Part shown: in pieces, positions 14,502-64,000 of the stretch
Position numbering within the stretch: position 1 is the stretch's first letter
How the letters are laid out: every line of letters begins with the position of its first letter
Assembly: GCA_043797125.1 (NCBI GenBank)
Contig: JAZDPX010000023.1
Span: 67,098 to 131,097, forward strand
Reading direction: 5' to 3'
Source of the DNA: Candidatus Omnitrophota bacterium
Lineage (GTDB): Bacteria > Omnitrophota > Gorgyraeia > JABMRG01 > JAFGKX01
Length of the DNA stretch: 64,000 nt
The notes under the pieces: generated by a model
What the model saw: the letters and a program-made list of their open reading frames with translations, nothing else
Database searches by the model: none
Told to the model about the DNA's origin: nothing
Made by a program: the position numbers and the translations under genes

Positions 14502-14510
14502 CGTTAGGGG

Positions 14511-14681: not shown

Positions 14682-14787
14682 TTTTGTTTACCTCTAAGTA
14701 ATATTATATTATCAATATGATAGTGTGTCAATAAGTCAGAAAAAATAGATGCTCGCTTTCGCGGGCATGACATATGCATTTATGATG

Positions 14788-27037: not shown

Positions 27038-27080
27038 TTATACAGCTTGTGATTAGATGATACTGTTGTGATACGGTTAA
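27038..27080 (+). repeat. three degenerate direct repeats (TGATACAGTT, ATGATACTGTT, GTGATACGGTT) overlapping the putative promoter, 5' leader and RBS of the efflux operon; same family as 11077-11100 and 38134-38157
   Basis: read directly; TTGACA at 27007-27012. Confidence 0.6.
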
Positions 27081-27092
27081 AAAAAGGAGACG

Positions 27093-29632: not shown

Positions 29633-29636
29633 GGGG

Positions 29637-31462: not shown

Positions 31463-31471
31463 AACAAAACA

Positions 31472-38159: not shown

Positions 38160-38520
38160 TCGTAAGCCATTCCCGTAAAAACACGCTCCAGATTTGGGCA
38201 AAACTATAGTCGTTCGGCCGGGGCCCCTCCGAAATTCCCTCGTGGGTTTTTACAGAGAAGAAGTCCTCGGTCAGTTTCGGTGTCCCCAGCCTGCCTGCCT
38301 GACGGTAGGCAGGCACTCCTATGTTTTGCCTACAACCAAAACTAGCAAGCCAAATCTTCCGCTATTGTTTTTACGGGAATGGCTTATTCGCTTTGGGTGC
38401 AAAAGATTTGGAAAATTTTTTTATGTCTCGCTCACAATGCCCCTTCGCTGTCATTCCCGCGAAACCTGTCCCCGCGAAAAAGGGGAGCGAGGATGACAAG
38501 CTGTTGCTTGTACTTTTTTA
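38160..38520. repeat. intergenic REP/MITE-like palindromic elements: 17-bp inverted repeat GCCATTCCCGTAAAAAC (38168) / GTTTTTACGGGAATGGC (38378); hairpin GCCTGCCTGCCTGACGGTAGGCAGGCAC (38285-38312); inverted copy of TTTCGCGGGAATGAC at 38450-38464; segments similar to 640-790
   Basis: read directly. Confidence 0.55.
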
Positions 38521-38548
38521 TTGACAATATAATTATTATATATATAAT
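38521..38548 (+). promoter_or_regulatory. sigma70 consensus promoter (TTGACA, 16 bp spacer, TATAAT) ~270 nt upstream of the giant ORF; second candidate TTGACT, 17 bp spacer, TATACT at 38666-38694
   Basis: read directly. Confidence 0.45.
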
Positions 38549-38818
38549 ATGAATAGATAAGCTTCATTATCGAGCGAATCACATTCGCTTTAATTGTTTG
38601 TAATTGTCAGGAGTAGCGCAGAAGACAAACACATCAGAAAAATTATCCAAATTAAGCTCGGAACCTTGACTTTTCTAGTTAAATATGTTATACTTACTAC
38701 GGGACTTAAAAAAGCATTTAATAATAAATAAAAAAATATGAAATAAAGACGATAAAACAATTTTCCATCTTCCACAATAAAGAAATAAATTTAGTCTCCT
38801 AAGGGGGTTAGGGGCAAA

Positions 38819-41800
38819 ATGATAAAACAGGCTACGGGAAGATATAGTTTTATTTTAAAAGCTATAAGTCTTACTATAGCCTTTTGTTTTACTATACAGC
38901 AGATCTGCTGGGGCGCAGACGGAACGCATCTTTGGAGTTTGATAAAAGGCAACCAGGTATTAAATGCTCAAGCAAGCGATTTCGTTAAGCTTCGCGATAT
39001 TTCCATCCCCGAAGATTACGGCATTGTCAGAGAAATTTTTGATGCCGGCAACAACCGCGTAATAATCCACATACAAGACGCGCACTCGAATTTAGGCGCG
39101 CAGGAATCTATAAGCAGGCTCCTTGACGCTTTAGAAAAAAGCTACAACCTCAGACTGGTTTCTCTTGAAGGCGCCTACGGTTTCGTGGATACCTCTACGC
39201 TTTCATGCCATCCGGATAACAGCACAAGAAAAGACCTTGCCAGGTATTTCCTGAATCGCGGCAAAATTAACGCCGCGGAATACTATAAAATAACATCAAA
39301 ATCCAGAGTGAAATTATACGGCGCAGAAACCCCCCAACTTTACAGGGATAATATCGCCGCTTATGTGGAATCGCTTGCCAATAAAGGCGAAATTCACAAA
39401 GCAATTATTACGCTAAAAAAGACATCTCAGGATTTGAAAGAAAAGGCCTACACAAAAAGCTTATTGGAACTGGATGCGAAAAGCATAGCCTATAAAACCG
39501 AAGGCATATCCTTTAAAGAATACTGGCAATATTTGGGCAACATAGCCCGTTCTTTATCGATAGATATATCCGGATATGAAAACGTGTCCCTGCTTCTTAA
39601 GGCATCCGCCTTGGAGGAAAAGACTGATTTTAAAAAAGCCGAACAGCAGCGAAAGGAGCTTATAGATATAATTTCGGATAAGCTCCCAAAGGATGACATA
39701 AAAGGACTGCTTGAAGAAAGCGTGTCTTTCGGATTGAATAAAATCCCGGCCTCCACCTTTCATAAGCACCTATTCGATTTAGCCGCAAAGGCCGGAACAG
39801 ACCCGGCAAAGTATCCGGACATCAGCAATTACGGCCAATATATCAATATGCACGAGTCCATATCCCAGGACAGGCTTTTTGAGGAAATTGATGAATTGGC
39901 GCTGCAGATAGAGGAAAAGTTATTCCAGAACGACGAGCAAAGACAGCTCGCAAAAGTGGCAAGAAACGCTGATATATTAGTAGACCTTCTGGACGCAAAG
40001 ATAATAAATAAAGACCTCGCGTATTATAAAACCCACCGCGATGAATTTATTCCCCAGGCGATAGCGCATAAGCTTACCAAGCTGATGGTAAAGCATAATA
40101 TAACCGCGAATCTGGTGCCTGATATGAGGGTTGTGGCAAAGGCCCTTCCGGTAGTAGAAAGATTTTACGATGTCGCCGAAAAAAGAAACAAGGCCCTGGT
40201 TGAAAACACCCTTGCCAAGATGGAAAAAGATAAGCGCCAGTTGTCGGTTTTAATAACAGGCGGTTTTCATACGGAAGGAATAAAGGAATTGCTGAAAGAC
40301 AAAGGCGTCTCTTACGTAGTCGTGCTTCCAAAATTCTCCCATAACGCGTTAGAGAGGCCGTATGAGGATGTCATCTTAAATAAGAAAGAGCCGTTTGAGG
40401 AAATACTTTCAAATAACGAATACTACCTCGCCCCCGCAAGCATATTCTCTAATTTTCAAAACAATCTTGAAATTCTTGTTGCCATGGCTACGTTAGGCAT
40501 GTACCTGGGCGTAACCTGGATAAAAGAAAATAAAGACCCAACCGAGCAAATACCCGCCTTGCTGAATATTTTAGGGTTAGAAAGACAGAGCATAATAAGA
40601 GAGGGCGAAACCCCCGGGCCAGTTGAATTAAGCCAGATAAAGAATGCTTTTAGTTTCGACTTTGTATTTGAAAATGAAAACGATAAAGGAACTTCTATTT
40701 TGGCGCATTTTCACAATAATTTTTTCAGGATAACAAGGTATAAAAACCCGGAACAGCAAGAAAGGCCTTTCGATATACTGCTTCTGGAAGGCGATGAAAA
40801 AATATCTGCCGCGGCATCGTTTAAGAAGCCCGCGTTAGCAGCTAAACAGCCCAGCGAAGAGGCCCAGCAGATAGTTGACAGCCTTGTTTTAGCGCAAAGG
40901 AGCATTACTAAAGAGGCCGATGAAAAACTTCAGGCGCAGTTTAAAATTAAAATATTGGAGCTTTTGGATGCAATAGAAACACCGGACGATTTTGAGGGCG
41001 CTACATTTAAAATCAAGCTGGGTAAACTTGTAAGGAATTATGATTTTAACGAAACTCTTAAACAGCAGATAGTTGATGATTTTATAAAAAGGAAAAAAGA
41101 TGAACTGAAGCCTGGACTTACTCAATCCTTTAAGAGAAAAGAAGCAGAGAGAAAAAAGGCGGAGCAAATAGAAGAGAAAATAGTAAAAAGCATAAGAATC
41201 AAGACAGAGGAGCTTAGTAAAACCGATCAGGCTGCGCTTGCGGATATCGTAGCGATTCATAATTCGCTTTACGATTTAAAAAAGAGCCTGCTTGAGGTAA
41301 GGCAAGAGCTAAAGGCTTTGCGAACCGACTGTTTTGATGCAGGCGCAATAATTGACTGGAACGAATGGGAGTACGACCCTGATAATCCCGACCGGATCTA
41401 CCAGATAAAAGCCCCAGAATCATACACAGCTACAAGAAACCCTGAAGACGGAAAATTTTATGTTAATACCGACGCGGGCGGCAGAGGATACGGGCCTGCA
41501 ACACCCAGCCCTGATGAGCTTGAGGAAGCCGAAGCAGTAAAAGCTATTCAAGAAAAACTGAATGAACTGTTTGAGCAAGCGAAAGAAGCGCATAAGAAAA
41601 CTTTAGAGATATTCAAAGAAAAGGCACCGCATGCGACTTTGCTGGGCAAGATTTTAAACGAAAGGAAGAGTGACACAACTAAGGCCTTCTATGCATACAA
41701 GCAACAGCTGTCAGGCCTGCAAAGCAAATCCAAAAACAAGGACAGGTTTGACAGTATAATAAACGGCCCTGTTAAAAAGATAGATGAATATTTTTCGGAA

Positions 41801-44800
41801 ATTGATAACGAGATAGAACTTCTCGTTGAGCTTTTTACAGACACAATAAAGCAGCCGACAGAAGGCTTAAACTCTGCGCTGGCGTCAATAGAAACGCAAG
41901 AATTGCCGGATATCATAAAGTTGATAAACAAGGCAATCGATGAGTACGAGTCAATACAAAAGGCTTATGAGAAGGCAGTGCTTGAATTAGGAATCTGGCG
42001 GCAGTTTGAAGAAAACAACCCGGATAAACAGGTTGCAGAAAAAATTGAGAAAATGCTATTAAGCATTAAAAACGTCAACACCGTGTATAAAAACGCGACA
42101 GGCGAAATGTATAAAAGCGACAAAATAACTGATCGTATAAAAAGCGCCTACGAAAATGCGCAGAAATTGTTTGAAGCCGAAGCGGACGAGGCTAAAGAAG
42201 CGCTAAAGACAGAGCAAATCCGTAAGACCCTAAAGCCGAAAGACCCTACCATAAAAGGGCTAGCTGAATTGTTAACGCTATATTCAAAAAAACACAACAA
42301 ACAACTTTTTTCGTATTCATACGCAGACATGGAAACAATTGTGGAATTAGCAAAACTGGTTAATCTGCCGGTTGATTGTACGCACGTATTCGATGTTATA
42401 GATAAAAAGCGCAAGGAACATAGGCAAAAAGTAGATGCTGAATTCCAGAATTTGGTGAATGAAGCAATAGGAAATACGGTTGCCGAAGCAGAACAGATAG
42501 CTACTGAGGCAAAAAAGGAAGTTATTGCTGGGTTTGAGCCAGAAAAGGTTACAGCATTTATTGACATGCTTGCCGAGAAACAAAAAGCAATAATGGAATC
42601 CGGCATGGTCCCAGGGTATGAAAATTTTATAGCAAATTCGGAAGTGTGGTTTGCCTTTGATGGCAAAACCGGCGAAGAGTCACGAGACATTACAGCAGAA
42701 AAATTTCATGATTTAATGGATAAGGCAATGGGTCTTAGTCTGAGCATAGATCAGCATATAGCAAGTCAGATAATAGATAATGCCGAAAATCTACTACAGG
42801 AACAGGAAATAAACCCGGATGTAGCCAAAAGTAAAATAACGGAGATTTTTGACATAGCTGAACGACACTTTGAAGCTAAAAAAAAGGAATACTGGTTTGA
42901 CGGCGCTCTACAAGAGCTATCAGAAGAACAAGGTATTTTATTTAACTCTATAACTACAGAGTTAGTGCAAAAAAAGAAGGAATGCCTTGATAAAATTGAG
43001 AAATTAGAAAAAACCCAAGAAACAATTGAAGGAGAAGAGACGCCTCTGACATCTGTTGATCTGGAGAAAGAGATAAATGAAATCCTTGAAAAGGAAGAAG
43101 AGAAGCCCCCTGTTATCGAGGAGGACGTATTCGAACTCATTGAAAAAATAGAAGAGAAAGAAGACGAGACACAAAAGGAAGAAGAAAAACTGGAAAGAGA
43201 AACCGAGCTTAAGGATTTGATTAAGCAGGAAAAAGAAAGGCAAACAAAAGCAGAAGACGAACAGAAGCCAAAAATCGAAGAAACAACAACGGAACAATTA
43301 GCGAAAGAAGTTGAAAAATTAGTAAGCGGGCTTTCCGATGGCGAACTTAAGGCCATAGAAGAGCTCAGGGTAATGTTGTATGAAAACGAAGACAACGCTG
43401 AAAACGCAAAGTTTCTTGAGCTTTACAATAAGGCAAAGCAGGCTTTTGAAAAGGCCATGGAGGCGGCATTAGGCAAAGACTACGAAGAAGGTTTGAGGCC
43501 ATGGCAAGAGGCAGGGGCAAAAGCGCTTTTATCAGGCAGGCTGCTTAAGCTCAAGGCGGGTAAAGGTAAGACATTGTCAGCGGAACTGGCGTTTTATATT
43601 ATGGCGCTCGGCATAATAGAAAGGCATAAAAGAAAAGACTTAAAAACCCAAAAAGACGCCATTATATTCACCGCGCATAACGAGAAAATGGCCAGGGATA
43701 ATGCGAAAGAAGCGGCAAAGGTGCTGGGCTGTTTACACGAGGAAATTAAAATAGTGCGCCTCAAGCCTAACCCAGAAGGCGGGGAGCCGCTGGCGTATAT
43801 CTACGATAAACATGGCGACGCTACGTCAATAACGCTTAAAAGCGCCTTTGAACAAGGCACTATTTTTGTCGGCACGCCTGATGTGTTTATCCACCGCGCC
43901 GGTACAGAGAGAAGAACGGCGGACAGCGACGAAATTTATTTTTTGAAGAGAGAATATAATTTGGTATGTGATGAAGTTGACCTGCCCGCCATGTATAACC
44001 TGGCGATGCCTCATAATATAGCGATGCCGGTTGACCAGGGAAGCGACCATTATAAATACGGTGTAGCCTTTGCCGAGAAGGCAATGGAAATAGCGTTAGC
44101 AATGCAGGGCTTACCCGGCCAATATTATGAGATCCCTGAGGGTTCTAAAACCGTTATATTGACAGAAGGAACGTTTGGCAAAAACGGAGTGAAATTTACG
44201 CGGGAGTTTATTAAGGAAGATACCGAAATACAAAATATCGATTATCTTAGAAACTTAAGCATTGACGAATGGGTAGAACAGGTTGAGGCATCGCTGGCCG
44301 CGTTAAAGTGTTTTCGTATAGATGATGATTACAGAATAGAAAACGGCGAAATTGTTATCATATGTAAAGTAACAGGCGCTTCCCTGCGCGGCAGCAGGTG
44401 GAATTACGGTATTCATACCGCCGTAGAAGTAAAAGAGGTTGTGATAAATCAACAAAAGATTGAAATACATCCTCCTGCTTCAGAAACAGCTGTGTCTATG
44501 GCATTTAATACATTCTTGCGCGTAAACAATATAAAAGGCAGGCCCCTTATAAAAAGAGACAGTACAGCAGAATCAACAAAAGGAAAATTCACAGGCATGA
44601 GCGCTACTATTGACGAGGTGTTTTTCATTAAAATTCATGGTTTAAAAACAGCGGATATGGGAGATATTGTAGATAAATGGGAAAAGAAAAATGGCTATCC
44701 GGAACTTGATATAGAGCCAACCGAGCTATATATGACAAACAACGAAAAATGGGCTGCTATACTGGCAAAGGTAAAACAGATTCATACTGATGAAGAAAGC

Positions 44801-47800
44801 AAGGAATATAGAAGGCCTATATATATGCATGTTGAGGATAAGGATATAGATTATGCGAAAGAAGTGATAACCAAATTAGGGCTTATTGACGCAGAGATAA
44901 AAGTGATAAAGGCAGCTTACAGCGAAGAAGAAATAAAAGATATGAGAAAAGAGTTAGGCTTGCAAAAAAGATCTGACATAAGCAACGATGAAATTGAGGA
45001 AAAGGCTATTGATAAATACCTAGAGAAAGCCGGTTTCCTTGGCAGAATAACGCTTGTTACGCATTTAGGTGGTCGCGGCGTTAATCCCAAACTGCCGAAA
45101 GAAGGCAGCCTAGAAAGAGATTTTGTAATCAAAGCAGGCGGCCTTCTGACAATCTCTACTTCTGTTGATGAACTTGAAGATACGGAAATACAGTTCCAGA
45201 ACAGGGCCGCGAGAAACCAGGAACCCGGCGGTTACAAAGCATACTGGTCTATGCAGGATACTCTTATAAGCGTAGAAGCCAAAAAGGCACTTTCTGAGTC
45301 ATATCCTAAACTGGAGAATATTTTAAGCAGGGATAAACCAGATAAAAAGCTGATTAAGAAAATAGTCGGGCGTATACGTGAGGTTATAAAAGAAAAAAGG
45401 ATATATAGCGCGACTGAGCAGGAACAGATGCAGGAGGAGCTTGATAAATATAACGATGAATTTTTAAGAGGGTTTGCCCTTCTGCGGAATAAACAAGGAT
45501 TCTATGATGACGTAGTAATGCAAGCTGCGGATAACAAAGCTTACATTGAAAAGGCAGCAAGTGAAATAGCTGAAATTATAACGCAAAAAGACGAAAAGGA
45601 TAAAAAGGCGGAACTGGCAACGCAGATTAAACGCAGGATTATGAATGTAAGCGAGGCTGCGCAATTGAATATGGGCGAGCAGGAGCGTAATCGCCTTGAT
45701 TCAGCCTGTAATTTTATGGCTGATAAATTGTTATCAGAAGCAAATAAGGCGTCCCTAACAGGCGCGATTACCCGCTATATCGAAGAATACATAAGAGAGC
45801 AATTTATACATATAACGGAAGAAGGCTCAGTCAGCTTCTTAAGCAGGGCTGAAAAATTAAAATTCCAGTTAGACAGATTTATTACAAGGTATGGCGAATT
45901 AAACCAGCAAGCCTTGCCTTTTGACAAGGTTAGCGCGTATAAGGTGCTGATTAAGCAATTTGCGTATGAAGAAAAACTCAAGATGGACAAGGAAAAGGCC
46001 GCCATATTATATTCATTCACGGAAAAAGGCGCCGAAGAATATAAAAAGGCGATTGAGAAAAAGGCCGCGTTAGACGCTCAAATGAACCGGCATATAGACG
46101 GGGTATTTAAGGATATTCAGGAATTGACGTCAGAGTTAGCAAGCATCGCGGCAGAACTCATCGAAATTTATGTAGAAATGGAAAAATTCATCGAAGAGAC
46201 AGCGAGTGAGATAGCTGAAATTGTAACGCTGGCAGAAGACGCCGCGAAAGAGCTGGCAACGCAGATTAAGCGCAGGATTATGAACGTAGACGAAGACACA
46301 GAGAACAATATGGACAAGGAAAAACGCGACAAGCTCAATTTATACTGCCTTGCTACAGCAGTTAACTTGTTGCTTGAGATGACAATAAGCGAAGCGCCGT
46401 TAAAAGATGTAATCGCCGGCTGGATTGCGCAATACATAAAAAAGATATCCAAGCAGATGGAAGGAAAAGAGATTAAAGAAGAAGAGATTGAAGAAAAAGA
46501 AGAAGTCCCTCCCGAAGAAGAAGTTGAAGAAGCGCCCGAAGAGTTGCCTGTTCCTGAAGAAATAACAGAAATAGAGGCTCCTGTTTCGGGCCTGAAGTAT
46601 TTTTGGACAAGGCTTCTGCCCTTAGCGTCAATTTTTGGAATTGGATGGCTATTATACAGGTGGCTGTTTAATTTTATAGGGCTAAACACAATAATTAAAA
46701 TGGCCGCGCAAGGAGATGTTGGCGGTATAGGAAGCATTATACCAAATATTTTATCAGGCAATACAGGCATTCCTATGTGGGTTTTGATTGCGGTAATAGG
46801 AATTTCACTTGCCATATACTTTATTACCAAGCCCCTTATGGAAAAATTTAACAGCATAAAAGCGGAAGCTCCGGTAAGAGAATATTTTGGTGGCGTGCTC
46901 AAGTTTTCTCCGGCAGCTTTACCAACAGTTTTTTTATTTGTTACGACAATCTTATCCATCGGTTTATTTTTTCCGAGCATTATAATTGTAGTGCTTGCGA
47001 CAATAAAAGGCGTGTCTGTAGCGGGGGTTTTAGCAGGAGCGCTTAACGCAGTCGCAATATTAAGCGTTTTGGCTGCGGCCTCACAATTAATAATGGTAAG
47101 GATGTATTACAGCGCCAATAAGGAGACACCACAGCAGCAAATAGGCAAGCCAAAAAGATTCTTCAGGGCTTTTACAGCCTCTGTTATGGCTTCCGCAACC
47201 ATATTTTTGCCTTTTGTCATCTTAACTTATGCAAATCCAATTGCGTATGTTCTCAGCGTATTTTTGGCAGTAGTGTGGTATATAGCTGTTCTTGCGCACA
47301 GGGCAATAAGGGCAGGATTATATAAAGGCTTATCGCAGTTTATGCGCGATGTAATAGGAGGGGAAAGGTTTATTCAGCCTGAAGCGCATATGAAATGGTC
47401 TTATACCGGGGTGATAACAGGCGTCGCATTTTATACGCTGCTTTTAAGAGTTTCGCTTGCAGCCTGGGCAATGCCTGCGGCGATATTTTTATTAGGCATT
47501 TTTACCATTAACCTGATTTTTTATTTAAAGGCGCAATATACACAGTCAAAACTAATGTCTAAATTTGTAGACGCAGACACGAAATTCAAATTTATTATTC
47601 AGGATGCAATAATCTACTGCAGGAAACTCGTGCCGTCCGCGGCAGCTGCCGGCTCTGCGGCAGGTTTTCTGTGGGATACGTTGACCAAGGACATGACTCC
47701 CATATCTTCCACAACCCTCTTAGTGATAGGCGCTGTTTTGGTAGGCGTGCTTTTAATATCCATCGCGGCAAAATCGCGTATTCATACCCGGCTTTCCTAT

Positions 47801-50800
47801 AAATTCGGCGCGCAAGAAGTCTCAGAAAAATTGAAAGAAGCGCTTGGTAAAAGCGATATTAAACCGATATGCGTGACTATGGGTATATTGGAAACAGAGA
47901 TAAAGAAATATAAAGAGGAAAGGTCGAATAAGCCCGTATCATACAATTACGAATACGCTATGAAAGTGTTAGATGATATGGGTAAAACCGATATTGTGCT
48001 AAGAGTAATCGCGGAAAAGATAAATACGGCGCATACAGATACGAAATACGCCGGAAAGATAGAAAAAGATATGGCGCTTGAAGCCATTGAAGACGGCATA
48101 TCAAAGGCCTTGTTGGAAAACAGCAAAATATTCACAGAAGAACTAACCGATACCGATGCGAGAAAAGGGGCCCTTATAGCGTCTTATCTTGCGATACTCA
48201 AAGAGCTGGACCTTATTATTACCCCCGTTGACAAAATCGCGAAAACCCTCTCTGACCCCAAAAAACTTCAGGACTTACTAAATATATTCTCCAACGCAAC
48301 CATATCAGTGCAATCTGCCGGCGGATACACCCTCGGCAACGAAATCGCAATAATACATAATCTTGTAAAGCAGGACACTGCAATAACGATGCGCAGGGTC
48401 TCGGTTTCGCCTCCGGCAGCTGTTTTGGACAGTTTCTTAAAGATAATCAACGCCTTTGAGCAAAAAGGCCCGCAAATAACCGAAGAACCCAAAGGCGTAA
48501 CTTTCGAAGCCGCGGCAGAAGACCTTATTCAGCTTGATGACGTAGCGCATATCGCTGACGGCCATATTATAAGCTGGGCAAGCGCCGCCATGGAGAAAAA
48601 TAATAAAGAGTTAGATAAACTTATGCCGTTTTTAGAAAAAGCCGACGCGCCCAAAGATAAGATTGCCGAAAGAAACGAACTTGCCGATAAAAACGAAAAT
48701 CTGCAAAAGATAATCCGCATCGCGGCCGAAAGGGCGCAAATGCATATGCAGGCAGGCACGCACAATGAAAACCTGAAAAAATTACACAAACTAGAGAAGC
48801 AAATACCGGCACAGATCACATGGCTTGAACAAAAGGGGTATCTGACTAAGGAGTCATGCGGCGGCGAGAAAGGCGAACAAGGCTGGTCTAAGCAGCAGAT
48901 AGACACAGCGCTTCTTGCCGGTATTCAAAACAACTCTTTAAATTCATGGGTTAAGGTCGAGATGGCGAACGCGTGGAAAAACACGACAGAGACCGAATTA
49001 TTAAAAGCGCAAATTGAATTAACAAATCTAAGAATCGAGCAATACACAAATAACTTAAATACAAAGATTCTTAGGGTGAAGATATTAAACAACGACAAAC
49101 TCTCCTTCGATGAAAAGGCCGCCATCATAAGCGAAATAAATATTTTAGGCGAAGAAAGAGATTCGGCGATTTCGGAAAAGACAAACCTTGCAAACCAGAA
49201 GGCCGCAGAATGCAATGAGATTTTATTGAAAATAATGGGCCTTTCTGAAAAATTAGACACGCTGGTTTACGGGGCAACAGCGGCCCGGCCGGTTGAAGCG
49301 GGCATTATACCAGGCTCGATATTCGCAAACGAAACTAAATCTGAGTTTTATTTAAGCGGAAACATCCCGGACGAAAAAATCCAAGCCATTATGGAAACCG
49401 ATTATTACGCGAAATTCAGCGACGCGCCGTCTTCGGACGAGATTAAAAATATTGACGATGAAATAAACAAGACCGGCTTATTCAGCGACGCCAGGAGAGC
49501 GCTTGAAAAAGAAAAAGTGGAAAAGATGCGCAACCGCGATAAATACGTATGCATGGCAATAGAATTATTTTTAAGAGAAAATGAGGGCCTAAGGTCAAAG
49601 AACACATTTACAGAGAAAGCGTACAGCGCACTTACGGCCGGCACAGTAAAAGACATAACCGATGATATTACTAAAAGCCTTGAGAAATTCGAGAAGGCTA
49701 CGCAGGGACAACAGCAAGATCTGTGGAGTGAGGCTCTTGCGCAGGTAATGGAAGATGAAAAGCCCTTCACGCAGGATGAGCTCTTTGACCAAAGAGAACA
49801 GGCGCTTTTAGAAGGGAATCTGGAAAAGGTGAAGGAATTAAAAGATATACACAAAAAGATTAAAGAAACGATGGATAAGATTCGGGAGGACAGAAGGCAA
49901 AAGCAAGAGCAAGAAAAGCAGGAAAAAGAGGCGAAAGAAAGGCAGGAAAAAGAAGCGCAAGAGAAACTAAAAAGCCCGGAAGAAAAGCAAAAAGAAATAG
50001 AAAAGCAGCTTGAAGAGAAAGAGAAAGAAGAAGAACAGCAAAGGCAAAAACAAAAAGTTGTTTTAGAGGTTCAAAGGGATTTCTATTCGCAAAAAGGCCC
50101 GTCATGGTTTACTTTCACCCTAAACAGGCTCAGGCCATATGAGATATACGAAGGGATAACGAAGAACGAGGCTGAGTTAAAGATATGGGGCCTGAACGAA
50201 AAAAAGATAAGCCTCCAAAAGCAGCTGGATAAGATGAAAGACGCTAAGGCAAAGACAGAAAAAGACAAAAAGGCAGAGATAGACGAAGAAGCAAAGATAA
50301 ACAACAAAATAACAGAGATAAACAAAAAAATTGAAGTAATCAATAACGCAATCGAGGACTTAGAAAACCCGGCGGAACAGGCCTACACAAAAGCGCAGAT
50401 TGATGCCATAAAACTTGTTACCGAGGCTTGCCCGACAGCCGAGGAGATAGATGCATATATAGAGCGGCAGGATTACGCTAAGACATTCAAAGACAAACAG
50501 GAATTATACGAATATTTCCAGAAAAAGATAATAAAGGCCGAACATAGAGACCGCAAAGGGCTTTACTCGTTTGACAACGGCGAATACAGAAACAGGGTGT
50601 GGCAGTATATGCGCGATGAGGCGTTTAAGAAATTATTTCAGCTTGATTGCGCAAGAAAAGCAACGCTGCTTGAATCAGAGATAAACCGGAAAAAGGCTGA
50701 ATTAGAAGCGCTGCAAAAAGAGAAAGATAAAAAGAGCGATTATATCAAAATACTTGAGGATGATATAAAAAATCTTGAGAAAAAAGTTGAAAAAGAAAGG

Positions 50801-53800: not shown

Positions 53801-56800
53801 GAAATCACAAAACAGATGCAAAAGCCGGACATCGACGCCATAGAAAAATCCTTTAAGAAAGCGGAGCTCGCGTTTCAGGAATTCAAAACAGATTTAGCGG
53901 GCATCGACGCGCTGCTTTCCATAAGCGAGGCATTGAAAATGCACGCATTTTATCCCAAGGAAACAAAGCAGAGGTGGGCCGGACAGATAGAAGGGATAAT
54001 AGAAAGGCTTAAGTTAAGAAAAAGCTCGCTTGAGAACGCCAAAAGAGGGGCGAAAACCGAAGAGGAAAGTTTTATTATTGATAATGAAATCAGGCTGATA
54101 GAGGAAACTCTCGATATAGCGGGGTATATCCTGAAGCAGCTCGATGGCAGCGGCCTCGCGCAGGAAGCAAGGGAGAAGATAGACTCAATAAGCCAAAAAA
54201 TAAAAGGCGAGATATACAGGCTTAGCTGGCTTAAGTTTCAGATAGAAGAATATGAAAAAAGGCTCAAAAAGGCAAAAGACGAAAAGGAAAAGGAAGACCT
54301 CGCCGTAAAAATAAACAGACTATGGCTTGAAGTGGCGGAAATAATAATCCAGCAAAAAAGAGAGCTCGCGCACAAAAAATACGAGGAGGCGGCAAAGCGA
54401 AACGATAAAAGGGCCTGCCTCGATATAATAAAAGCCCTTGTGGTAGAAGAACGGGCCTTCAGCAAGACAAAAGAGCGCCTAACAGGATACCCTGCCCATG
54501 CCGCAGATACCGGGCTTAGAGATTTTGTTTATAAAAACCTTTCAAACGACAGGGCGCATTTTGCGGATAAGGGATACGCCAAACTCATAGATTCAATACA
54601 GGACTCAAAAGCGCAAGGCAAGATGTTGACGCTGTCTTTTTTGCGCGAAAAGATAGAAAAGGCGGGTTTAAAAGGCGAGGAAGCCGAGGATATGTTAAAC
54701 CATATCCTTGTTTCAGCGTCAGCGGGCATAAATCCTAATGTCATAAAAATGGCCTACGAATTGATAAGCTCGCTGGATAATAAGCTGGCAAACGAGATAT
54801 CAATAGCCGCTTTCATAGACCCTGTAAGCTTCTCGAGGCTTGCTGAAGGGCTTTTTGCGGGATTTGTTGAATTCGGAGGCGTCGCGGAAGAACTTGATTA
54901 TACCGCAAAACTCATATCCAGCCTGTATCAGGAAAAAAGCCAGGTTGTGGCGCTTGAGAGCATGCAGGCTTGCCTACTCGATACAATTACCGATATGTTA
55001 GACAAACCCGGCGTTTTTAGGGATGCTTACCAAAAGTTTAAGGATGCGCAAACAGGCCTTATTAAGGACTTAGGCCTGGATACCAACCTCATAAACTCCG
55101 TAATAAGCCTGTCATTTGGTTATGAGATGCCTGACGGCGAAAACGAAACACAGATTAACGCGACCATAAGTTTTAAGAGCGGTGAAGTATCCTTGGCCAA
55201 AAAGACGGTGAGCCTAAGCATTTTGCAGGGCTATCTTGAGGCGTTACATAATCTTAAAACCCAGTTAGCCCGCGCAAAACAGGATATACTGATTTCATAC
55301 CTTTATATGCAGGAGACAAAAATAACGGCAATCCAACTGCAAGCCTTGGCGGAACAAATACGCCTTGAAAAGGATTTTGAGAAAGGCAGTGTTGATGAGT
55401 GGCTGTTTGATATCCACGAACAGCTTCTGCTCGCAAAAGCGGATGACAGCGCAGCTACTGCTGTGCAGCAATATAACGAGAGGGCAGCCCAAAAGAAGAA
55501 TATCAAGCTAAGCCTGCAAGAGATACGCAACATCGAAGACATAACAGAGGAAGCGCTTCAGGTAAAAGAATATGATATGCCTGACGGCGAACTTAAATTT
55601 GCCGCTGAGGTAAGAAAAGGCGCGGAATCTTTAATAGGAAGGCTGAGGTTGAGTTTCGGGCTTGAGGCGGAAGGCAATTTAGAGCAGATAAGCGAGGCAG
55701 ACTTAAGCGCGTTCTTAAGGTTTAAATGGGACCTTTATAACAGCCACGACGATGAGCGCAGGAAATTAGCTGAGGCGCAATATAATAAGACGCTTGCGGA
55801 TATTGATAACAGAATAGACCAGATAGATAAAAAGCTGGTCGAGCTTAAGGGAGCTGCTGCGCAGGATGCAGAGGAGCTGGATAGGCTAAGGACAATGTCG
55901 GAAAAGGAGACAGCAGAAGGATATATCGCGATATTCAAAAAGATATACGCAAATCTTAAAAGCAAAGAAGGTTTGCTGCTTGGTTCTGATGTAACAGGCC
56001 AAATAGGCCTTTTAAAAGCGACTACAGAGATGGCCATTCTTGACAGAGAGAGGCAAAACCTCATAAAAATGAGGAACGATATTAAGAATGCATGGGACAG
56101 AGGCGGGAAAGAAAAGGCAGCGGGAAAAGAGAGTAAAAAAGAACTTAAAAAAGAACTTAAAGCGGAAAAGAAGCGAGCAAAAGAACAAGAACAAGAAAGA
56201 GAAGCTAAAACCGCCACTATGATGGCAACTGTTAAAAAGGCTTCAAGAGAACGGATAGATGACATAGAGATAATGACAGAGAGTGACTTTGGGCGCCTTA
56301 AAGAATTGCTTGATGGCCTGGAACAGTATAAACGCAGGCTTTATCTGACAGATGAATATAAAAACAATAAAAAAGAGTTTGACGATTTAATAAACCCCAT
56401 TTACGAGGGCGCCGAAGGCAAAGCATTAGACTCTCTTGAAAATTCCAGGAACGCGGAAACCCTGTTAAAACTTCTGCCGGATCTGTTGCGCGCTTTAAGA
56501 TACGAAAGGTTATCCGCGGAAGATAGACAGAATGCGCTGAAAAAATGGACAAAGGCAATAGAAGCCAACGAATCAATCGAGGATAAAGAGAAATTTAGAA
56601 AGACGATAACCGATTTCTTTAAAACAGAATACGGCGAGAACGCTTTCAATAGCGAATATAAGCCATTATTCAGAAAGCTAAAGAGGGCCGATAGCGTAGA
56701 AGAGGTTATTGCCTGCCTCAAAGAGTTCGATGCGTTAAAGGGAAAATACGGATATCTTAAAAATATCGCAGCGGATAAAGAAAACGAATTTTGCGTAAGA

Positions 56801-59800
56801 GCCCACGAGGAGGCTGTCAGGTTTGTTGTCCCGCATCTTGCGGGAGATATGGAATTAACGTATAGCAATCAGAGCCGGATTCTGCCTTTATTAACAAAGC
56901 TATCAGCATATAAACTTAGAGCGCCGGAACGGGAAAAGCTCTATAAGCTATGGATGGATACCCTGCTGAAAATAGCTGAAAACGATAAACAGATATCCGA
57001 GAAATACCTCAAGCCGATACGCAAAGAGATTAAGGAAGCGCCGGAGATTATTAAGGCGCTTCTTTCAGAGTTAGAAAAAAATATCGAGACATCTTTGGAA
57101 AAATACATTGTTCTAAAGGCCCTGCTTGGCGCGTTGAATAGATGCCTTATGCAGGAAGAGGCAGGCAGCAAGGTGGAGGATGAGGCAGGCCGCGCCACGC
57201 TGCAGCTTAAAGCAAAATTAGGTAGAATAAAAGAAATTTTAGCGGCGATTGACAAAGACATCGCGTTTTTAAGAACGAATATTATCCCCAATGAAAAGGA
57301 ACTCGCGTTTATTTTAGGGAACATAAAATCAAATATGCTTGATTGCCAGAAGATAATGAGAACCGGTATTCCGGAGCTTATGGTAAAGGCAGGAAACCGG
57401 GACTATGCCACCCGGGCGCAGGAGCTAAATAACGAACTAAATGGAAAATACTATCATATAAAAGAGGCGCTTAAGTTTTCATTTATGAGTTATATAAATA
57501 CGGTTCAAAACGAAGAAAAAAGGCTCTATATCTTCCATTTATTTAGCGTTGATTTAACCGATAAATATAACATTTCCTATAACGAGGACGATCTAAAGGC
57601 TATTATAGGCAGCATGAAAGCTTCTGCGCAAAGTAAAGAAGCTTATTTAAAAATAGCCATTGAAAGAAGAGAGATGTTTGTAGTCGCGAAGATAAGAGAC
57701 TATTTAAAGGAATTGCAAGGCACTAGTTCCCTTATGGCCATAGATGAAATAACAAGAACGCTTGATGAGCTTTTTAAGGAAGCTGAAGGCTACAGAAATA
57801 TAGATTATAAGATAACCCAGCTGGAAGATAAATATGAAAATATTAAAGCCGCTGTTAATGGAAAGAAGGAAAATGCGGTGGCGGCATTTAACAGTTTATA
57901 TAAGGTAAACATAGGACTGCTTGATTACAAAAACAGCACATCAACTATCCGCGATGCCTGGTACGCCATAAGCAAGGCCGCGCTGGCGGCAGTAAGGCTT
58001 ACCACAGGCGCGCAGAGGCAGGATATCATTGACAAAACCACCCAGGCATATAATAAATACAGCGCGGCGGAAAAGGACAGGACGCAAAACAAGAGCCTGT
58101 TCCGCGATGCCTATAATAAGCATAGCGAGGATTTGAATAATATCAGAAACATAAAGCCCGCAAAAAGGATTGTCGAAATATACCGCATATTGAATGATTT
58201 CTCCATAGATGAACAGGAGGCTAAAGGCTTGTTTGAGGGAAGCGATATGCCCGTATTTAACAAGGACTGTTATGGGCTAAGAAACACCGCGCACATTATC
58301 CTGACAGACACCCTCAGCGAGAAAGACGCTATAAAGAGGAAAGACAAAGACAATATACTTAGTAATTTAAAAGAGATAATAGGCTTACTCAACATAGAGG
58401 AATTGGAGAAATTCGGCATAGAGGTTGAAAACAGCAGGATGGAGCGCTGGATGAGGGTATTTGAAAAATGGCGCGGGAACGAAACATTTACGGAAAGCGA
58501 GATAGCGAAAATTGAAAATACCCTAAAAGAAAAATTCGGCACGCAAAAAACTACGGCAGAAAGCCCCATAGACACAAATACGGCTGACTTAATTGATATA
58601 GTTAAAAGCGTAAGAACGAAGTTTTATGAGGAGCGCACATATAAAGCTGATATGAGGGAAGCCGACGCCATGAAAGGGCTTGCCGGATTTGAGTGGGGGC
58701 TGGGCATTGAAGGCACCCTGGGCCCGGTTGATTTATTCGACGGCTTTTTGAAAATAGATTTTATATGGTCTCCCGAGGCGGAAAAAGAGCACGCCGAGTT
58801 ATATAAAGATTTTGTCAACATCAGGCAGAGCCTGGCAAACAAAAGGGCTAATATGGCTTCGGTCAGGCACCTGCTCGATTATTTCAATATCGTGATACAA
58901 CTGGATCAGCTTGAAAAAGACACTGCCAGGAAAAACGCGCTTTTGGAAAAAAAGAGAATGTTAGAGGCCCATTTGCCCGCGGGAGTAATAGATAACATAG
59001 AAATGGCAAGCAGCTACTTGAATGCAGACGCTGATAAGATATTTGCGGCGGTATTATCGGAGCTTGATAAGACTTATTACTGCGCGGAAGTATCAACGCA
59101 TGACATGATGGATTTATTGGAGAGAATGCAGAAGGTTAACATAGAATGCAAACTCAAAGGCAAAACAGCCATAACTGTTTCCATAGGGCCGAACATATTA
59201 GCTTCTGTATTAAGGACGCTTTTGCCTCTGTTTCCGATGCTTTTCGGTAAATCAGGTTCTGAAACACGGACCCAGGCCAATGAACAGGCAGACAGAGCGC
59301 TTGAGTCGCTGATAAATTATGAGATACAGCTTAGGAAGGAGAAAGAAGCCGCAGTAATTTTATACGCGTATACCAGCCAAAACCTGAGCATAGCCCAAAA
59401 ATACTATAACAAGGCCAAACCTGATAAAAAAGACGCCGCGCTGAAGGCTCTTATCGTGGCGCAGGAGGCCTTTATTAACGCTCGCCTTGCGGTCATAAAC
59501 TCGGGGGCAGATTTAGACGGTGAATCAAGCAAAGCTATTATCGCGCAAATGAGCGAGTATCTCGAAAAACGCCAGGATATATTTAAGGAAATTCTCACGG
59601 CAGATAATCTTGCGGAAAAGAGTTTAGAAAATATTTTGCAGGAAATTGACGAAAAGATGGCCAGGGCAAAGGACGAATTTCTAAACGCTATCGAAGACAC
59701 GCAAGGCCCCGCAAGTGTTTTCACGGACTGGATAGAAGATGATTCTGCCAGGGCTATCATACAGGCATATTTGGCAAGCGAGGATGATACGGGGGTGTTT

Positions 59801-62800
59801 AGTTATGAGGATTTTATGGATTCCTCGGAAATCGCCACTGTAAGCAAAGGCCCCGGTTACCATGTATTGGTTCCTGTATCGGGCGCGGAACCTGGCCAAC
59901 AGCAGCAACTCAGGGGTTATCTGGAAAAAGAATTTAAAATCTCGGATATGTATAAATTTGTGTATGACTTTAGCGTCAACAGCGCCACGGATGATTTTAT
60001 TAATATGGTAGATGACGCAACAACCGCTAATACCGGGCTTGCGCTTATAGTAGATTTAAAAGACGGTTCGCAAATGCGTTTTCCGCTTAATGTCTCCTAT
60101 GATAGTGACGGCAATCTGCAGTATACGATGAGCGGCGGATACAGCAATCCCAAGGTAACTGCCGAGCTCGGGGCTGATTTTGGAGACGGCACGGACCCAT
60201 CCTGGTGGGCAAACATCAGCCAAAAATTTGAGAAGGCAAGCATCGGCCTGTATTATACCGGCGCAGCAGGCGAGTCGGAGAAGGAAGATGTCACCGTGAG
60301 TTTCGTGTATATGCCGGTCAATCTTTTTACGTTCGGCGCCAACGCAAAGTATGATTTCATAGGCAGTGAAGCGGGCAGCGACATATTTGTCAGCGTAAAA
60401 CCGCAGAAGAATGTAACAATAACCGTTGCCGGCTCCTATAGCGATAGTTCGGGTTTTGCGTCGAGCGGCAATGTAGCATACTTTTTACAGAAGACGGGCA
60501 CAAGATTAGATTTTGATATTAAGTCCGCAAAAAACCAGGATATCGAAGCGAGCGTAAACGGCAAGCAGAGAATATTAAAGATAATGGATATTATTTTTAG
60601 CGCGAGCCAGGAGGAACAGACCTTCGGAGTAGAGGTGCGCACCTGGAAGGAAGCATTGCAGTTTAAGGTCCAGACAAGCACAGACCAGACGCATGAGGCG
60701 CAAGTAAAACATCATGCTAAACGCACTGACGCCAGCCTCGGTTTTGAGTTTGGGCCGGAAGGTGATGCAACCGTAGAGGCAGAACTTAGTTACAGGCTTG
60801 GGGGTCCGAAAGCCACCACGCCGTCAGACTACTTCCCTGAAACCGAAGACTTTAACGATTCTACTATATTAGAAGACCTGGATTCAGGAGGCCAAACCCC
60901 GTTCTATGATAAACAAGGCCAACCGCAAGAGGAAACCAAAATACCGGATACGCCGGATATCCAGCAGGCAGAATCAACGCCGCCTCTTTCTACTATGCCG
61001 GTAGAAATGCCGCCTGAGGAGGTAGAAGAAGAGAAATGGTCGGTATGCGAGCGCGTCCTTGAGATTTATTCCGGTACAAAGAATCTAAAGGAATTAAGAA
61101 ATAAAGAAATAGCCGGGCTCTTTGAAGCCGCGGAAACAGCGATCAACGAATATAATACATCAAAGAAGTCTTTTGAAGACACATTGCAAGAGTTAGAAGA
61201 AATAGAAGAGAAGGTCAGGCTTACCGGCCTCGGCGCGAATGAGCTTAGACTTAAAATTGAGGACGCGCGCGATAAGTTAACCGAACTGCGAGACAAAATT
61301 ATAGGCTTAAATAACGTTATTAACGTGAGAAGAGCGCAGCGCAAGGAACTGCCGGAAGAATTGACCGAGTTTAGCGGCAATTTCGAAGAATTAATGACTG
61401 TCATCGGTAATATCCTGCTGGAATTAGACAAGCAGCTTGCCCGATTTAAGACTGCCAAAGAAGCTTCAGGCGCGCGGCTATCACCGATAATAATAGACGC
61501 AAAAACAGAGTCAGATTCATATCTTAAATACCTCACAGATTCGGTCAATGGCTGGCAGGAGTTAAACGGCAGGGTTGCTGGCCAGCTAAACGAAGACGAA
61601 TCCAAAGAATCTGAGGCAGTGAAAAAGTGGAACGGCTTATCTGAGGGAAAACAACATAGCCTTCAGGCGGAAATAGACAAAATCGCAAATGATTTAAAAG
61701 CGGGATACGCTGAGTTTTTCTCCTATGCGGCTAACAGCGAGAGTGAAATACGTTATTGGGCCAGGCTTATTGCTTCAGGAGGAGTTTCCAAAGAGTGGGT
61801 GATAGAGCGCATAAAACAATTAGGCTACCTTGTAAACAACACGCAATTGCAAAAATACCTGCTTAAAAATAACAAGCTGGATGGTTCATATAACGGCGCG
61901 GATAGGCAATCTCTGCGATACTGGGCAGCGGTGTTAAGCATAAAAGGCAAGGAATGGGCCAAAGATGAAATTGCCTTCAGGGTAGAACTTTTAGATGTAA
62001 TCAAGGCTGTATATGGATTTAAGGAAAAGGAATTTAATCCGGATTGCGCCTCTGACAGAGAAAAGATAGCCGCGTTTTCAGGAATGGCGGCTTTCGCGGG
62101 GGCTGATAAAGCAGGCCTGTTAGAGACGCTGGCCGCGATAAAAGATAACCAGCAGTATCTTAAGCAGATATTAGAAATGCGCCAGCAGGATAAATTCGAG
62201 ATTTCCCAGACCATTGCGCTTCTGAGATGGGCCGCGCTTATAAAGAAATGGGAACAGGCCGGCATAAACGCGCAGCTTATCTTGCAGTGCGTGATATTAT
62301 TAAAGGGCCATTATAAAAAGGCAAGCGAAGCGCTCAAAAGCTTAAGCGACAGCGCATATAATGATATTCTGAAAAATCCGTTTGCCAAGGAAATATACGA
62401 GCTTATTCAGATAGCGTCTATGGCGCAGGAAGGCGATGCTCTCGCAAATAATTCTTACGACGCGGAGTTTTTAAAGGTTTACCTTGATTCGCAGGCAACG
62501 CACTTAGGGGCCATAAAGCGCCTTATAGGACTTAAGCGCGATGACTCTATTATGTCCGCGCCAAAGGCGTATTTTTCAATACTTCAGGCGCTGCAGGAGG
62601 AATGGTCGAAAGATAAATCTCCGTGGACGCAGGAAGGGGTTATTGATGTAGCGCTGCTTATTGATAGGATGAATTACATAAAGACAGACACCGAGGCAAT
62701 AAGATCAATTTTCGGCAAAACATTAGACCTCACGAATGCCGAAGACCTGAGCAGACTTGCGTGGCTTGGCATGGCAAGTATAGGCGTCGGTAATCTGTCA

Positions 62801-64000
62801 GGCCTTGGAATGAATATAAAGGATTTTATGGCTTCATTAAGCCGTCTTAAACAGCCGCTGGGAGAATTTTTAGGAACAACCTCTATAGACTGGAAGACAG
62901 ACAAGGATGTGTGGGCATATTGGGCAGGCCAGGCTGTTCTGCAGGATGAAATAGGCGGCGACGGCGCCGCTGTAATAGAAGATATTTTAAAGACTATGAC
63001 GCGCAATAAAAACAAACTGGCGCAGATTAGCCCGCTAAAAGGCGCTTATACAGCGGATTATCTAAGAAACATACGGATAAAAGATAATTCATTGCTTAGC
63101 TTAGAAATCGCCGAGCCTATCCTAAGAGGAATAAGCGCAAGCAGCATAAACGAAAAAATAGATACAGCCGGCAAGATTAACAGAGATTTGCAATTGGTAT
63201 TTAAAGAAGGCAATGCCGGCTCTGTCGTTGATAACGCGGAATACAGGGATATTCTTTTCGGCCTTGCGGAAAAGGCGGTTTCGGGCGAGATAAAAGACGC
63301 AGAAAAATTCGCCAAGGCAATGGCTGATATTTCCAATTCCGCCGGCTTTCACAAGCTTCTGCCTTCGGGAATTTCGGTCTCCGATATAAAAGACCAAAAG
63401 AAACTCGCCATGCTTGAGTATTTTGCGCGGCTTAGCCTTGAGTATGAGTCTGTCAATATAAACATGGACACGCTTATGAACGACGTATCGACGCTTTCAC
63501 AAAGAAATGATTTTGGCTGGACCGCTCTGACATCGGGCAAGCTGGATATATTAGACGCAAGCCAGAGAGAAATTCTGGTATATTTTGCGCGACTCACCCA
63601 AACCGATAAAGGCGCCAAGGCTTTGGGCATATCCGAAATATCAAAGATCCTTGACATTATAAGCCTGAACGAAAACAGAATCCTTATCGCGCAATTGCTT
63701 AATCAGCAGGCGTTGGAAGGGCTAAATGATATAAACAGCGCCAATTTCATAAAACTTGTTAAAACCGCCGCGACCTTGCACGTATACAACATAAAAAGCG
63801 CGCAAGACCTTAAAAAGGCCGTGTCTATAAAAGATATGCTGGATAAGCTTTATAATCTGGAAGGCGCAGACAGGCTTTCTCTGTCAAATACAGATGACGA
63901 AACACTGATATTGAAATGGGTCGCTTTCGCAAACGCGCGGGACTTCGACTCTGTAAAGATTCTGGAAAAGATGCTCGAGTTTAAGCCGATTATAGAAGAC
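38819..64000 (+). CDS. giant gene, 5' end and at least 8,394 codons, 3' end beyond the window: Lys/Glu-rich giant membrane protein with an embedded SecA-like ATPase, an internal polytopic membrane module, repeats and a beta-rich segment
   Basis: ATG 38819 with RBS AAGGGGG; frame verified open by manual codon parsing to 64000; no complete plus-strand ORF in the track over this 25 kb, consistent with one frame never terminating; N-terminal hydrophobic anchor [22 protein letters not shown]. Confidence 0.8.
   Translation, partial: [8394 protein letters not shown]
43480..45270 (+). other. SecA-like motor ATPase region inside the giant ORF (NBD1, preprotein cross-linking domain, NBD2)
   Basis: [23 protein letters not shown] vs SecA [91 protein letters not shown] vs SecA [115 protein letters not shown] vs SecA [45 protein letters not shown]. 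Confidence 0.8.
45558..46290 (+). repeat. internal duplication within the giant ORF: ~100-nt near-identical segments at 45558-45655 and 46201-46290 encoding ASEIAEI(I/V)T...[13 protein letters not shown](S/D)E, part of a ~110-aa repeated module
   Basis: GAACTGGCAACGCAGATTAAACGCAGGATTATGAATGTA vs GAGCTGGCAACGCAGATTAAGCGCAGGATTATGAACGTA. Confidence 0.7.
46596..47775 (+). other. polytopic membrane module inside the giant ORF (~10 hydrophobic helices within ~390 aa)
   Basis: [179 protein letters not shown]. Confidence 0.7.
60040..60810 (+). other. beta-strand-rich segment inside the giant ORF (alternating hydrophobic/polar pattern, Gly/Ser/Thr-rich) followed by a Pro/Thr/Glu-rich linker (60810-61030)
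   Basis: [67 protein letters not shown]...[20 protein letters not shown]...[24 protein letters not shown]. Confidence 0.5.

Follow-up and report, generated by a model that had tools for sequence, protein, structure and literature searches.

A giant membrane-protein gene of Candidatus Omnitrophota with a probable TIKI-like N-terminal domain and a SecA-derived module

The stretch of Candidatus Omnitrophota contig JAZDPX010000023.1 analyzed here (64,000 nucleotides (nt), positions 67,098 to 131,097 of the forward strand; hereafter the window) ends in one giant open reading frame (ORF), which starts at ATG 38819 on the plus strand and is still open when the window edge truncates it. The frame is very probably a single genuine chromosomal gene, with a product longer than 8,394 amino acids (aa) that belongs to a known Omnitrophota class. 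Its features in the 5' to 3' direction are as follows.

38801-38814, plus strand: Shine-Dalgarno-like motifs AAGGGGG (38801-38807) and AGGGG (38810-38814), read from the sequence
38819-64000, plus strand: giant ORF, at least 8,394 stop-free codons from ATG 38819 in frame +2
38840-38920, plus strand: N-terminal hydrophobic helix, signal anchor or signal peptide, aa 8-34, preceded by K3 and R8
38996-40408, plus strand: conserved head domain with predicted alpha/beta core, aa ~60-530
39065-39085, plus strand: head motif IHIQDAH, aa 83-89
39161-39181, plus strand: head motif SLEGAYG, aa 115-121
40259-40270, plus strand: head motif GGFH, aa 481-484
40463-40528, plus strand: candidate second transmembrane helix, aa 549-570
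40736-43228, plus strand: charged helix-favoring spacer, aa 640-1470
43283-45328, plus strand: SecA-like motor ATPase, aa 1489-2170
within it, aa 1489-1597+, plus strand: first nucleotide-binding domain (NBD1), with Walker A AGKGKT at aa 1580-1585 (nt 43556-43573) and DEVD at aa 1718-1721
within it, aa 1766-1870, plus strand: PPXD (PF01043, 49 bits)
within it, aa ~2056-2170, plus strand: NBD2, with LGGRGV at aa 2083-2088 and QNRAARNQEPGG at aa 2127-2138
45539-45799, plus strand: duplication, copy 1, aa 2241-2327
46184-46441, plus strand: duplication, copy 2, aa 2456-2541
46604-47770, plus strand: predicted polytopic membrane block of 9-11 (about 10) hydrophobic helices, aa 2596-2984
47816-59818, plus strand: helix-favoring K/E/L/A/I-rich sequence of ~4,000 aa, aa 3000-7000
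59936-60808, plus strand: beta-favoring block of about 16-18 short amphipathic strands, aa ~7040-7330
60809-61066, plus strand: Pro/Gly/acidic linker, aa 7331-7416
61067-64000, plus strand: further helix-favoring sequence, aa 7417-8394, leaving the window

A first-pass annotation, made from the sequence alone, had claimed one stop-free frame from ATG 38819, and retranslation indeed gives 8,394 codons without a stop; the nearest in-frame stop 5' of the ATG lies at 38792, and the window contains no N. In these 25 kb, the remaining plus-strand frames hold 697 and 677 stops and the three minus-strand frames 174-450, and the second-longest open stretch in the whole window has 1,196 codons. At 2-8% stops per codon, the chance of 8,394 stop-free codons is roughly e^-170 or less. 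The stop counts of the other frames, taken with the length of the open one, thus exclude a chance origin. The codon usage is that of the upstream genes, as had also been claimed: a log-odds score trained on 21 of them and applied to sixteen 1.5-kb windows is positive for the giant frame (+0.18 to +0.24) and negative for the two shifted frames in all 16, and the GC contents at the three codon positions are 0.50/0.32/0.46 in the giant ORF vs. 0.48/0.35/0.45 in the upstream genes. Self-comparison likewise bears out the view of a multi-module protein and not a repeat array. No large internal repeat is present (protein BLAST self-comparison empty at E ≤ 1), the sole repeat in the nucleotide BLAST self-comparison is a 106-nt pair of 75% identity, and Tandem Repeats Finder lists no arrays beyond seven small ones of 28-68 nt. 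The final 61 nt of the window have no match among JGI metagenome contigs. On the minus strand, the interior of the giant gene (40889-63657) holds many ORFs of 100-375 aa, for example 51208-52335, and stops are sparse in one antisense frame (174 among 8,393 codons). The minus-strand ORFs resemble shadow ORFs of a K/E-rich coding strand and not genes. ATG 38819 is a credible start, because Shine-Dalgarno-like motifs precede it and the homologues of the giant protein align from residue 1.

The N-terminal hydrophobic segment (Kyte-Doolittle value 1.66 over aa 11-29; helix at aa 8-34 in the model) is present in 130 of 172 members of the head family. The head behind it was modeled with AlphaFold2 from a 25-sequence alignment, with a predicted local distance difference test (pLDDT) of 80.2 and a predicted template modeling score (pTM) of 0.71. 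The model has a parallel-sheet alpha/beta core, of the kind found in TIKI, TraB, ChaN, and EreA, which is split by a helical insert of ~300 aa (aa 172-470). The ~1,000 aa of N-terminal helical sequence described in the first-pass annotation hence stand only in part, the first ~530 aa being this conserved alpha/beta domain with its helical insert. In the table comparing the head with TIKI superfamily members, the figures are 11.1 for HopBA1, 10.4 for ChaN, 10.1 for a TraB-family protein, 9.9 and 9.1 for two Bcr135-type "succinoglycan biosynthesis" proteins, 8.9 for EreC, and 7.7 for RRSP. The RRSP structure paper lists the members of the TIKI superfamily and gives the 2His/2Glu set of RRSP as E3900, H3902, E3930, and H4030; the corresponding residues reported for Bcr135 are H85 and E113.

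Across four head alignments, D87, H89, Q95, and E117 never vary, and conservation of Q86, G481, G482, and H484 is complete or at least 90%, with H484 invariant in two alignments and at least 90% conserved in the other two. The conserved motifs read IIHIQDAH, EGA.G, and ITGGFHT. Placed on the predicted model, these residues form the pattern D87-x-H89, with E117 at +28 from H89, as in RRSP and Bcr135, and H484 past the last core strand. The head differs from the TIKI superfamily in that its core is split by the helical insert and that it keeps to the N-terminal end of very long chains, just after a hydrophobic helix. A profile search of the head against PDB sequences found nothing; examples of curated models of the superfamily are the Pfam families TraB_PrgY_gumN, Cofac_haem_bdg, and Erythro_esteras. 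With good confidence, the modeled fold can be called TIKI-like, and the chances are about even that the head has hydrolase activity, as a protease or an esterase.

When 1.84 billion cluster representatives were searched exhaustively with HMMER, 8,235 relatives of the head came up at E ≤ 1e-3 and 3,019 at E ≤ 1e-30. With two exceptions, the match in the best 150 begins no later than about residue 80, and the longest protein has 7,792 aa; many end at contig ends. The median length of head-bearing proteins is about 2,050 aa, when these best 150 are pooled with the hits of another homologue search. The window head is 66% identical to a gene of CP070655.1, 53% to the start of an ORF at locus L003, and 55% to a gene at locus L013. 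Past the head, aa 550-568 form a second hydrophobic segment (Kyte-Doolittle value 1.69, helix of pLDDT ~70 in the model), and a hydrophobic segment at aa 500-700 occurs in 5 of 144 longer relatives. The charged spacer that follows has no Pfam, NCBIfam, or PDB match, and a PDB sequence search with aa 641-1470 found nothing. The aa 1001-1500 window has 17% Glu and 12% Lys, and a stretch of at least 55% charged residues (aa 1391-1507) overlaps the start of the SecA-like module.

The SecA-like module was recognized in a Pfam scan of the giant protein (E ≤ 1, in nine overlapping pieces) by PF01043 (49 bits), PF21090 (28 bits, NBD2), and PF07517 (17-19 bits, NBD1, below its cut-off). It scores 58 bits in the NCBIfam SecA equivalog, the cut-off of which is 814, and matches SecA chains in PDB at E 6e-17 to 1e-13. 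A word-index homologue search with aa 1400-3050 returned only three canonical SecA proteins, with scaffold/wing and SEC-C. PADLOC gave nothing and PHROGs only an unnamed family on the PPXD, neither of them a lead to a defense-system or phage origin. The module shares with canonical SecA the GKGKT Walker A, the DEVD box, the PPXD, the GRG and arginine motifs of NBD2, and the SecA order of these elements, but it sits within a giant chain and is tethered to that chain's own membrane block. Canonical SecA pushes its substrate by the scaffold/wing and two-helix-finger regions. By its sequence, the module is SecA-derived and not a SecA orthologue.

Between the module and the membrane block lies the duplication of ~85 aa that underlies the 106-nt pair (nt 45544-45649 and 46189-46288, 75% identical). 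A large duplicated module is rejected, and the duplicated module named in the first-pass annotation spans ~85 aa only. The predicted membrane block starts about 430 aa past the SecA-like module, and its transmembrane (TM) helices, like the others given here, were called by hydropathy. A single-sequence AlphaFold model of the block is all-helical (pLDDT 51, pTM 0.29), too poor for a fold search.

The arrangement recurs in relatives. In three head-bearing proteins (P0035, P0075, and P0127), a SecA-like domain is present and a run of about 10 hydrophobic helices begins 170-260 aa after it; the membrane blocks of the three are mutually 34-39% identical, with no detected relation to the window block. 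The L003 ORF has the head, then a region weakly similar to SecA NBD2 (24% over 377 aa, E 1e-7), then a hydrophobic block; it follows OEP, AcrB, and AcrB genes, remains open up to its contig end (at least 2,390 aa), and is colinear with the giant protein. The order of SecA-like module and ~10-helix block is hence found in four relatives, and, as judged by sequence comparison, the order is conserved and the block sequence is not. Other head-bearing proteins are strings of metabolic enzymes (PGM, PFK, transaldolase, and PEP-utilizing domains). One head-bearing protein, P0088, is complete at 7,013 aa and was met on seven contigs, the longest of 261 kb. At positions 1-41042 of a 217-kb contig (L014; ENA ERZ27256770 k141_541867) it stands in a row of consecutive same-strand giant genes of 17,420, 7,013 (P0088), and 7,759 aa. 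P0088 and its 7,759-aa neighbor both begin with the head (identity to the window protein 33% and 31%, respectively); the start of the 17,420-aa gene falls outside the locus.

For the tail of more than 5,400 aa past the membrane block, relatives were not detected. PDB sequences gave nothing for aa 3001-8393, Pfam and NCBIfam gave no family above threshold on the tail, a homologue search with aa 6961-7500, covering the beta block, returned nothing, and back-translated pattern scans revealed no relatives of aa 7394-8393 in genomes or of aa 3001-4200 in metagenomes. Three stretches of the protein are at least 55% charged (55-68% E/K/R/D), namely aa 1391-1507 (42989-43339), 3644-3762 (49748-50104), and 5736-5829. 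Such stretches are typical of single alpha-helix or ER/K spacers and, by analogy, may serve as rigid rulers between modules. The strands of the beta block alternate in hydrophobicity, are rich in G/S/T/D and aromatics, and have aromatic ends and G/D/S/N turns; by sequence, the block resembles an outer-membrane barrel. A sub-threshold PG_binding_1 match lies at aa ~4316-4348 (51764-51862; E 0.002, 18.7 bits vs. a cut-off of 23) and, if real, would put that part of the tail in the periplasm. The remaining parse of the first-pass annotation agrees with these data: the N-terminal anchor, the SecA-like ATPase, and the ~10-helix membrane block are recovered by hydropathy and by Pfam, NCBIfam, and PDB matches, and the charged helical stretches, the beta-rich block, and the Pro-rich linker (the latter two at aa ~7040-7416) by composition.

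The upstream 38 kb contain an Rnf operon, RACo, PurN, phosphoglucomutase, enolase, a ROK protein, four tRNAs, and an RND efflux operon. The last of these and the putative regulatory sites next to the giant gene are listed below.

27068-38136, plus strand: RND-type tripartite efflux operon (Pfam), directly 5' of the giant gene
27068-29632, plus strand: OEP/TolC-like gene, 854 aa, with a long N-terminal extension
29637-31094, plus strand: HlyD-like gene (Pfam)
31472-35053, plus strand: AcrB-like gene 1 (Pfam), 1,193 aa
35050-38136, plus strand: AcrB-like gene 2 (Pfam)
38521-38548, plus strand: promoter-like TTGACA-16-TATAAT, 12/12 consensus, 270 nt 5' of the start
38666-38694: second, weaker promoter-like site, consensus match

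ATG 35056 is a likelier start of the second AcrB-like gene than TTG. The first AcrB-like protein has a C-terminal extension with a borderline DeoR-type helix-turn-helix (aa 1133-1176, 21.6 bits vs. a cut-off of 21), which is unusual for an RND pump. The gap between AcrB and the giant gene is 680 nt and holds a 100-aa TTG ORF (38194-38496) with no family match. Terminator-like hairpins at 38496-38511 and 38572-38590 lie on either side of the perfect consensus promoter, which suggests a transcript of the giant gene that is independent of the pump operon. The candidate promoters of the first-pass annotation exist as consensus matches but as nothing beyond, with 6 promoter-like sites in 1 kb vs. 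2.7 ± 2.1 in shuffled sequences. A protein with MshEN and PilZ domains at 11149-12291, 27 kb upstream, is the only item related to type II secretion or pili in this region.

Contigs of Candidatus Omnitrophota metagenome-assembled genomes match the second AcrB at 80-84% identity, and head homologues bear Omnitrophota names; an Omnitrophota origin of the window follows from both. Two of the best AcrB loci carry the label "uncultured Planctomycetia", which was taken as a binning label. The order of AcrB and a head-bearing gene is common to three other Omnitrophota loci (L003, L004, and L013); the OEP-like gene and both AcrB genes are retained in L003 and L013, and the AcrB gene in L004. The L004 locus is on CP070655.1, the chromosome of Candidatus Omnitrophota bin81, where the syntenic site (12625-14753) has only a head gene of 620 aa, followed 3' by ordinary genes (PNPOx, rubrerythrin, Ogg, Rex-like, and NadA). 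The similarity to the window protein runs 13 codons beyond the stop of this gene, and the junction is blurred by a 100-N masked stretch at L004 14527-14626. An assembly gap hiding a giant body was considered and rejected: since the N runs are exactly 100 nt long and the frame of the L003 ORF reads through one of them, they look like masked sequence, in which case the CP070655.1 head gene is truly short. This suggests that the giant body was lost in CP070655.1 or gained in the lineage of the window. A survey of related genomes for syntenic giant ORFs, as proposed in the first-pass annotation, thus produces the L003 ORF of at least 2,390 aa, but only the short head gene in CP070655.1 and, in L002, no head-bearing gene after AcrB.

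Taken together, the window gene is read as encoding a giant membrane protein with a TIKI-like head, a built-in SecA-like/TM motor, and a long envelope arm, a proposal that is somewhat favored as a whole. The positively charged N-terminus and the hydrophobic helix would insert the chain into the inner membrane, and the positive-inside rule would put the head outside the cytoplasm. There, the head would most likely act as a protease or an esterase, either by trimming the giant chain or with an envelope or prey molecule as its substrate. The ATPase would have to be cytoplasmic. The SecA-like/TM pair would then be a membrane-tethered motor for ATP-driven feeding of its own downstream chain across or into the inner membrane, the path being either the adjacent helices or SecYEG, as follows from the model of West-Roberts et al. 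(2023). The remaining 5,400+ aa might, in the weakest step, be a long structural arm in the envelope or at the surface. By analogy, self-export is offered tentatively as the role of the SecA-like/TM pair, and export of the tail, as opposed to a cytoplasmic location, is possible at a little under an even chance.

Several observations weigh against this proposal. In the head, the first acid is Asp where the reference pattern of the TIKI superfamily has Glu, a Foldseek search against PDB gave nothing significant (best E 0.095), and no Pfam family matches aa 1-1100 at E ≤ 1, so no TIKI-type model does. The candidate second TM helix is poorly kept in relatives. The Pfam scan detected no scaffold/wing (PF07516), two-helix finger, or SEC-C (PF02810) in the SecA-like module. 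Neither Pfam nor PDB sequences give the membrane block a match that would point to a built-in SecY-like channel, and hhalign found no relation between it and the blocks of P0035, P0075, and P0127 (probability 0.2). The count of 9-11 helices leaves the parity open, and the K/R-rich flank past the last helix fits a cytoplasmic tail. Pfam, NCBIfam, and PDB searches of the tail revealed no adhesion, carbohydrate-active, or enzyme domains, and the tail thus lacks the adhesion and carbohydrate-active domains that back the predation model elsewhere. Finally, the 38 kb upstream contain no type II secretion genes, unlike the published giant loci, and close relatives differ at the locus, with the 620-aa head gene only in CP070655.1 and none in L002.

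Some of these features would also be expected of a cytoplasmic or membrane-associated scaffold, in which the tail is a coiled-coil skeleton inside the cell and the SecA-like module, no longer a translocation motor, serves as a generic ATPase or chaperone. The K/E/L/A-rich composition with stretches of at least 55% charge is like that of single alpha-helix or coiled-coil proteins, the K/R-rich flank past the last TM helix points to the cytoplasm by the positive-inside rule, the SecA scaffold/wing is undetected in the module, extracellular-type domains were not found in the tail, and relatives with the same head carry sugar-phosphate enzymes of a cytoplasmic type. The best-conserved SecA part is, however, the preprotein clamp (PPXD, 49 bits), the pairing of module and membrane block is conserved, the beta-rich block resembles barrel strands, and published topology predictions put most domains of giant proteins outside the membrane, so that such a scaffold is judged unlikely.

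A polyprotein, i.e., one chain cut into smaller working proteins by the TIKI-like head or another protease, as a delivery or stoichiometry device, is quite unlikely. Cleavage sites or repeated linker motifs were not seen in the giant chain, its tail has no recognizable enzymes to release, and a head beyond the membrane could not reach cytoplasmic segments. Nevertheless, the head retains a His/Glu set of the protease/esterase type, and the unrelated enzymes strung together in other head-bearing proteins (PGM, PFK, and transaldolase) would suit such a chain. The MARTX toxins, which carry the TIKI-type RRSP, are also large multi-effector toxins. MARTX toxins autoprocess. The cutting of the chain has been proposed as the role of the N-terminal C39 and S8 peptidases of other giants (West-Roberts et al., 2023). 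An assembly artifact, in which a chimeric join or a collapsed or expanded repeat made a false open frame, might explain why relatives were not found for three queried body parts and why the close relative CP070655.1 has only a 620-aa head at the locus, but it is extremely improbable, as a mis-join would need to leave all 8,394 codons free of stops, with uniform, frame-specific host codon usage on both sides, no repeats are available to collapse, the architecture of the first ~3,000 aa is colinear in the independent assembly L003, and complete giant genes with the same head lie on contigs of up to 261 kb in several samples.

The existence of the gene alone changes little, being one more example of a documented Omnitrophota trait. 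The example is clean and repeat-free, with a readable order of head, spacer, SecA-like motor, membrane block, and long tail. The N-terminal region published as "lacking identifiable domains" is here a conserved TIKI/TraB/ChaN-like domain, its catalytic set intact, found in thousands of very long proteins. If this is true, the head would be a marker with which such proteins can be found and classified even on contigs that truncate them. It would also offer testable biochemistry, with a protease or an esterase heading the chain and, in the self-export reading, two enzyme activities to test, as well as a fragment small enough to express, as an entry point to bench work on proteins otherwise too large. 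A further step, in which the head is an unrecognized hallmark "leader" of Omnitrophota giants that forms a self-contained export-and-processing system with the SecA-derived motor and the ~10-helix block, is doubtful.

Giant proteins of this host group have been reported in two preprints. Omnitrophota ORFs of up to 85,804 aa, all with many TM regions, were described by West-Roberts et al. (bioRxiv, 2023). Most of these giants have divergent SecA DEAD and preprotein-binding domains without scaffold and wing, near TM regions, and built-in SecA/TM export of the giant's own chain was proposed. Their N-terminal regions "generally lack identifiable domains" besides C39 or S8 peptidases (West-Roberts et al., 2023). 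Type II secretion genes are found near published giant loci as a frequent, not strict, feature of the class. According to West-Roberts et al. (2023), pilZ genes are conserved near giant genes, downstream of them. The second preprint finds one or more proteins of 10,000 aa or longer in 165 of 176 complete Omnitrophota genomes (93.8%). Of the 916 long proteins that it catalogs, 94% contain TM helices or a signal peptide and most are sequence-unique, and SecA DEAD-like (PF07517) is one of the two largest architecture clusters (Nielsen and Lui, bioRxiv, 2026). The multi-10-kb Omnitrophota ORFs mentioned in the first-pass annotation are confirmed by both, and its expectation of a novel system fails for the same reason, because giant SecA-bearing multi-TM proteins are already published and occur in most complete Omnitrophota genomes.

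The window gene joins this published class and is not a new system. It is like the other Omnitrophota giants in its host, in its N-terminal hydrophobic segment or signal peptide and many TM helices, in being a single ORF of tens of kb with a mostly unannotatable, sequence-unique body, and in having a SecA DEAD (weak PF07517) and a PPXD without scaffold/wing beside TM helices. With regard to the size bins of at least 10,000 aa (Nielsen and Lui, 2026) or more than 30,000 aa (West-Roberts et al., 2023), the window protein has at least 8,394 aa and is still open. It is unlike them in having an RND efflux operon upstream in place of type II secretion genes and an N-terminal domain that is TIKI-like, not C39 or S8. 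Neither preprint mentions TIKI, TraB, ChaN, or erythromycin esterase. What is new, and apparently undescribed in this context, is a hydrolase-like head that opens thousands of other very long proteins, of which those with enzyme strings match the "multi-enzyme" class of Nielsen and Lui (2026).

The marks of Archaeovorin- and Dockerin-type giants (glycosyltransferase/glycoside hydrolase, methyltransferase, NUDIX, dockerin, and TSP3 domains) are absent from the visible 8,394 aa in Pfam and NCBIfam. Archaeovorin of Velamenicoccus archaeovorus has ~39,700 aa. It is the type of the "Archaeovorin" class of West-Roberts et al. (2023), and its expression is supported by proteomics. The window protein differs from Archaeovorin in that the class-defining set of enzyme domains is not seen in its visible part, and resembles it as an Omnitrophota giant, membrane-associated protein with a proposed role at the cell surface.

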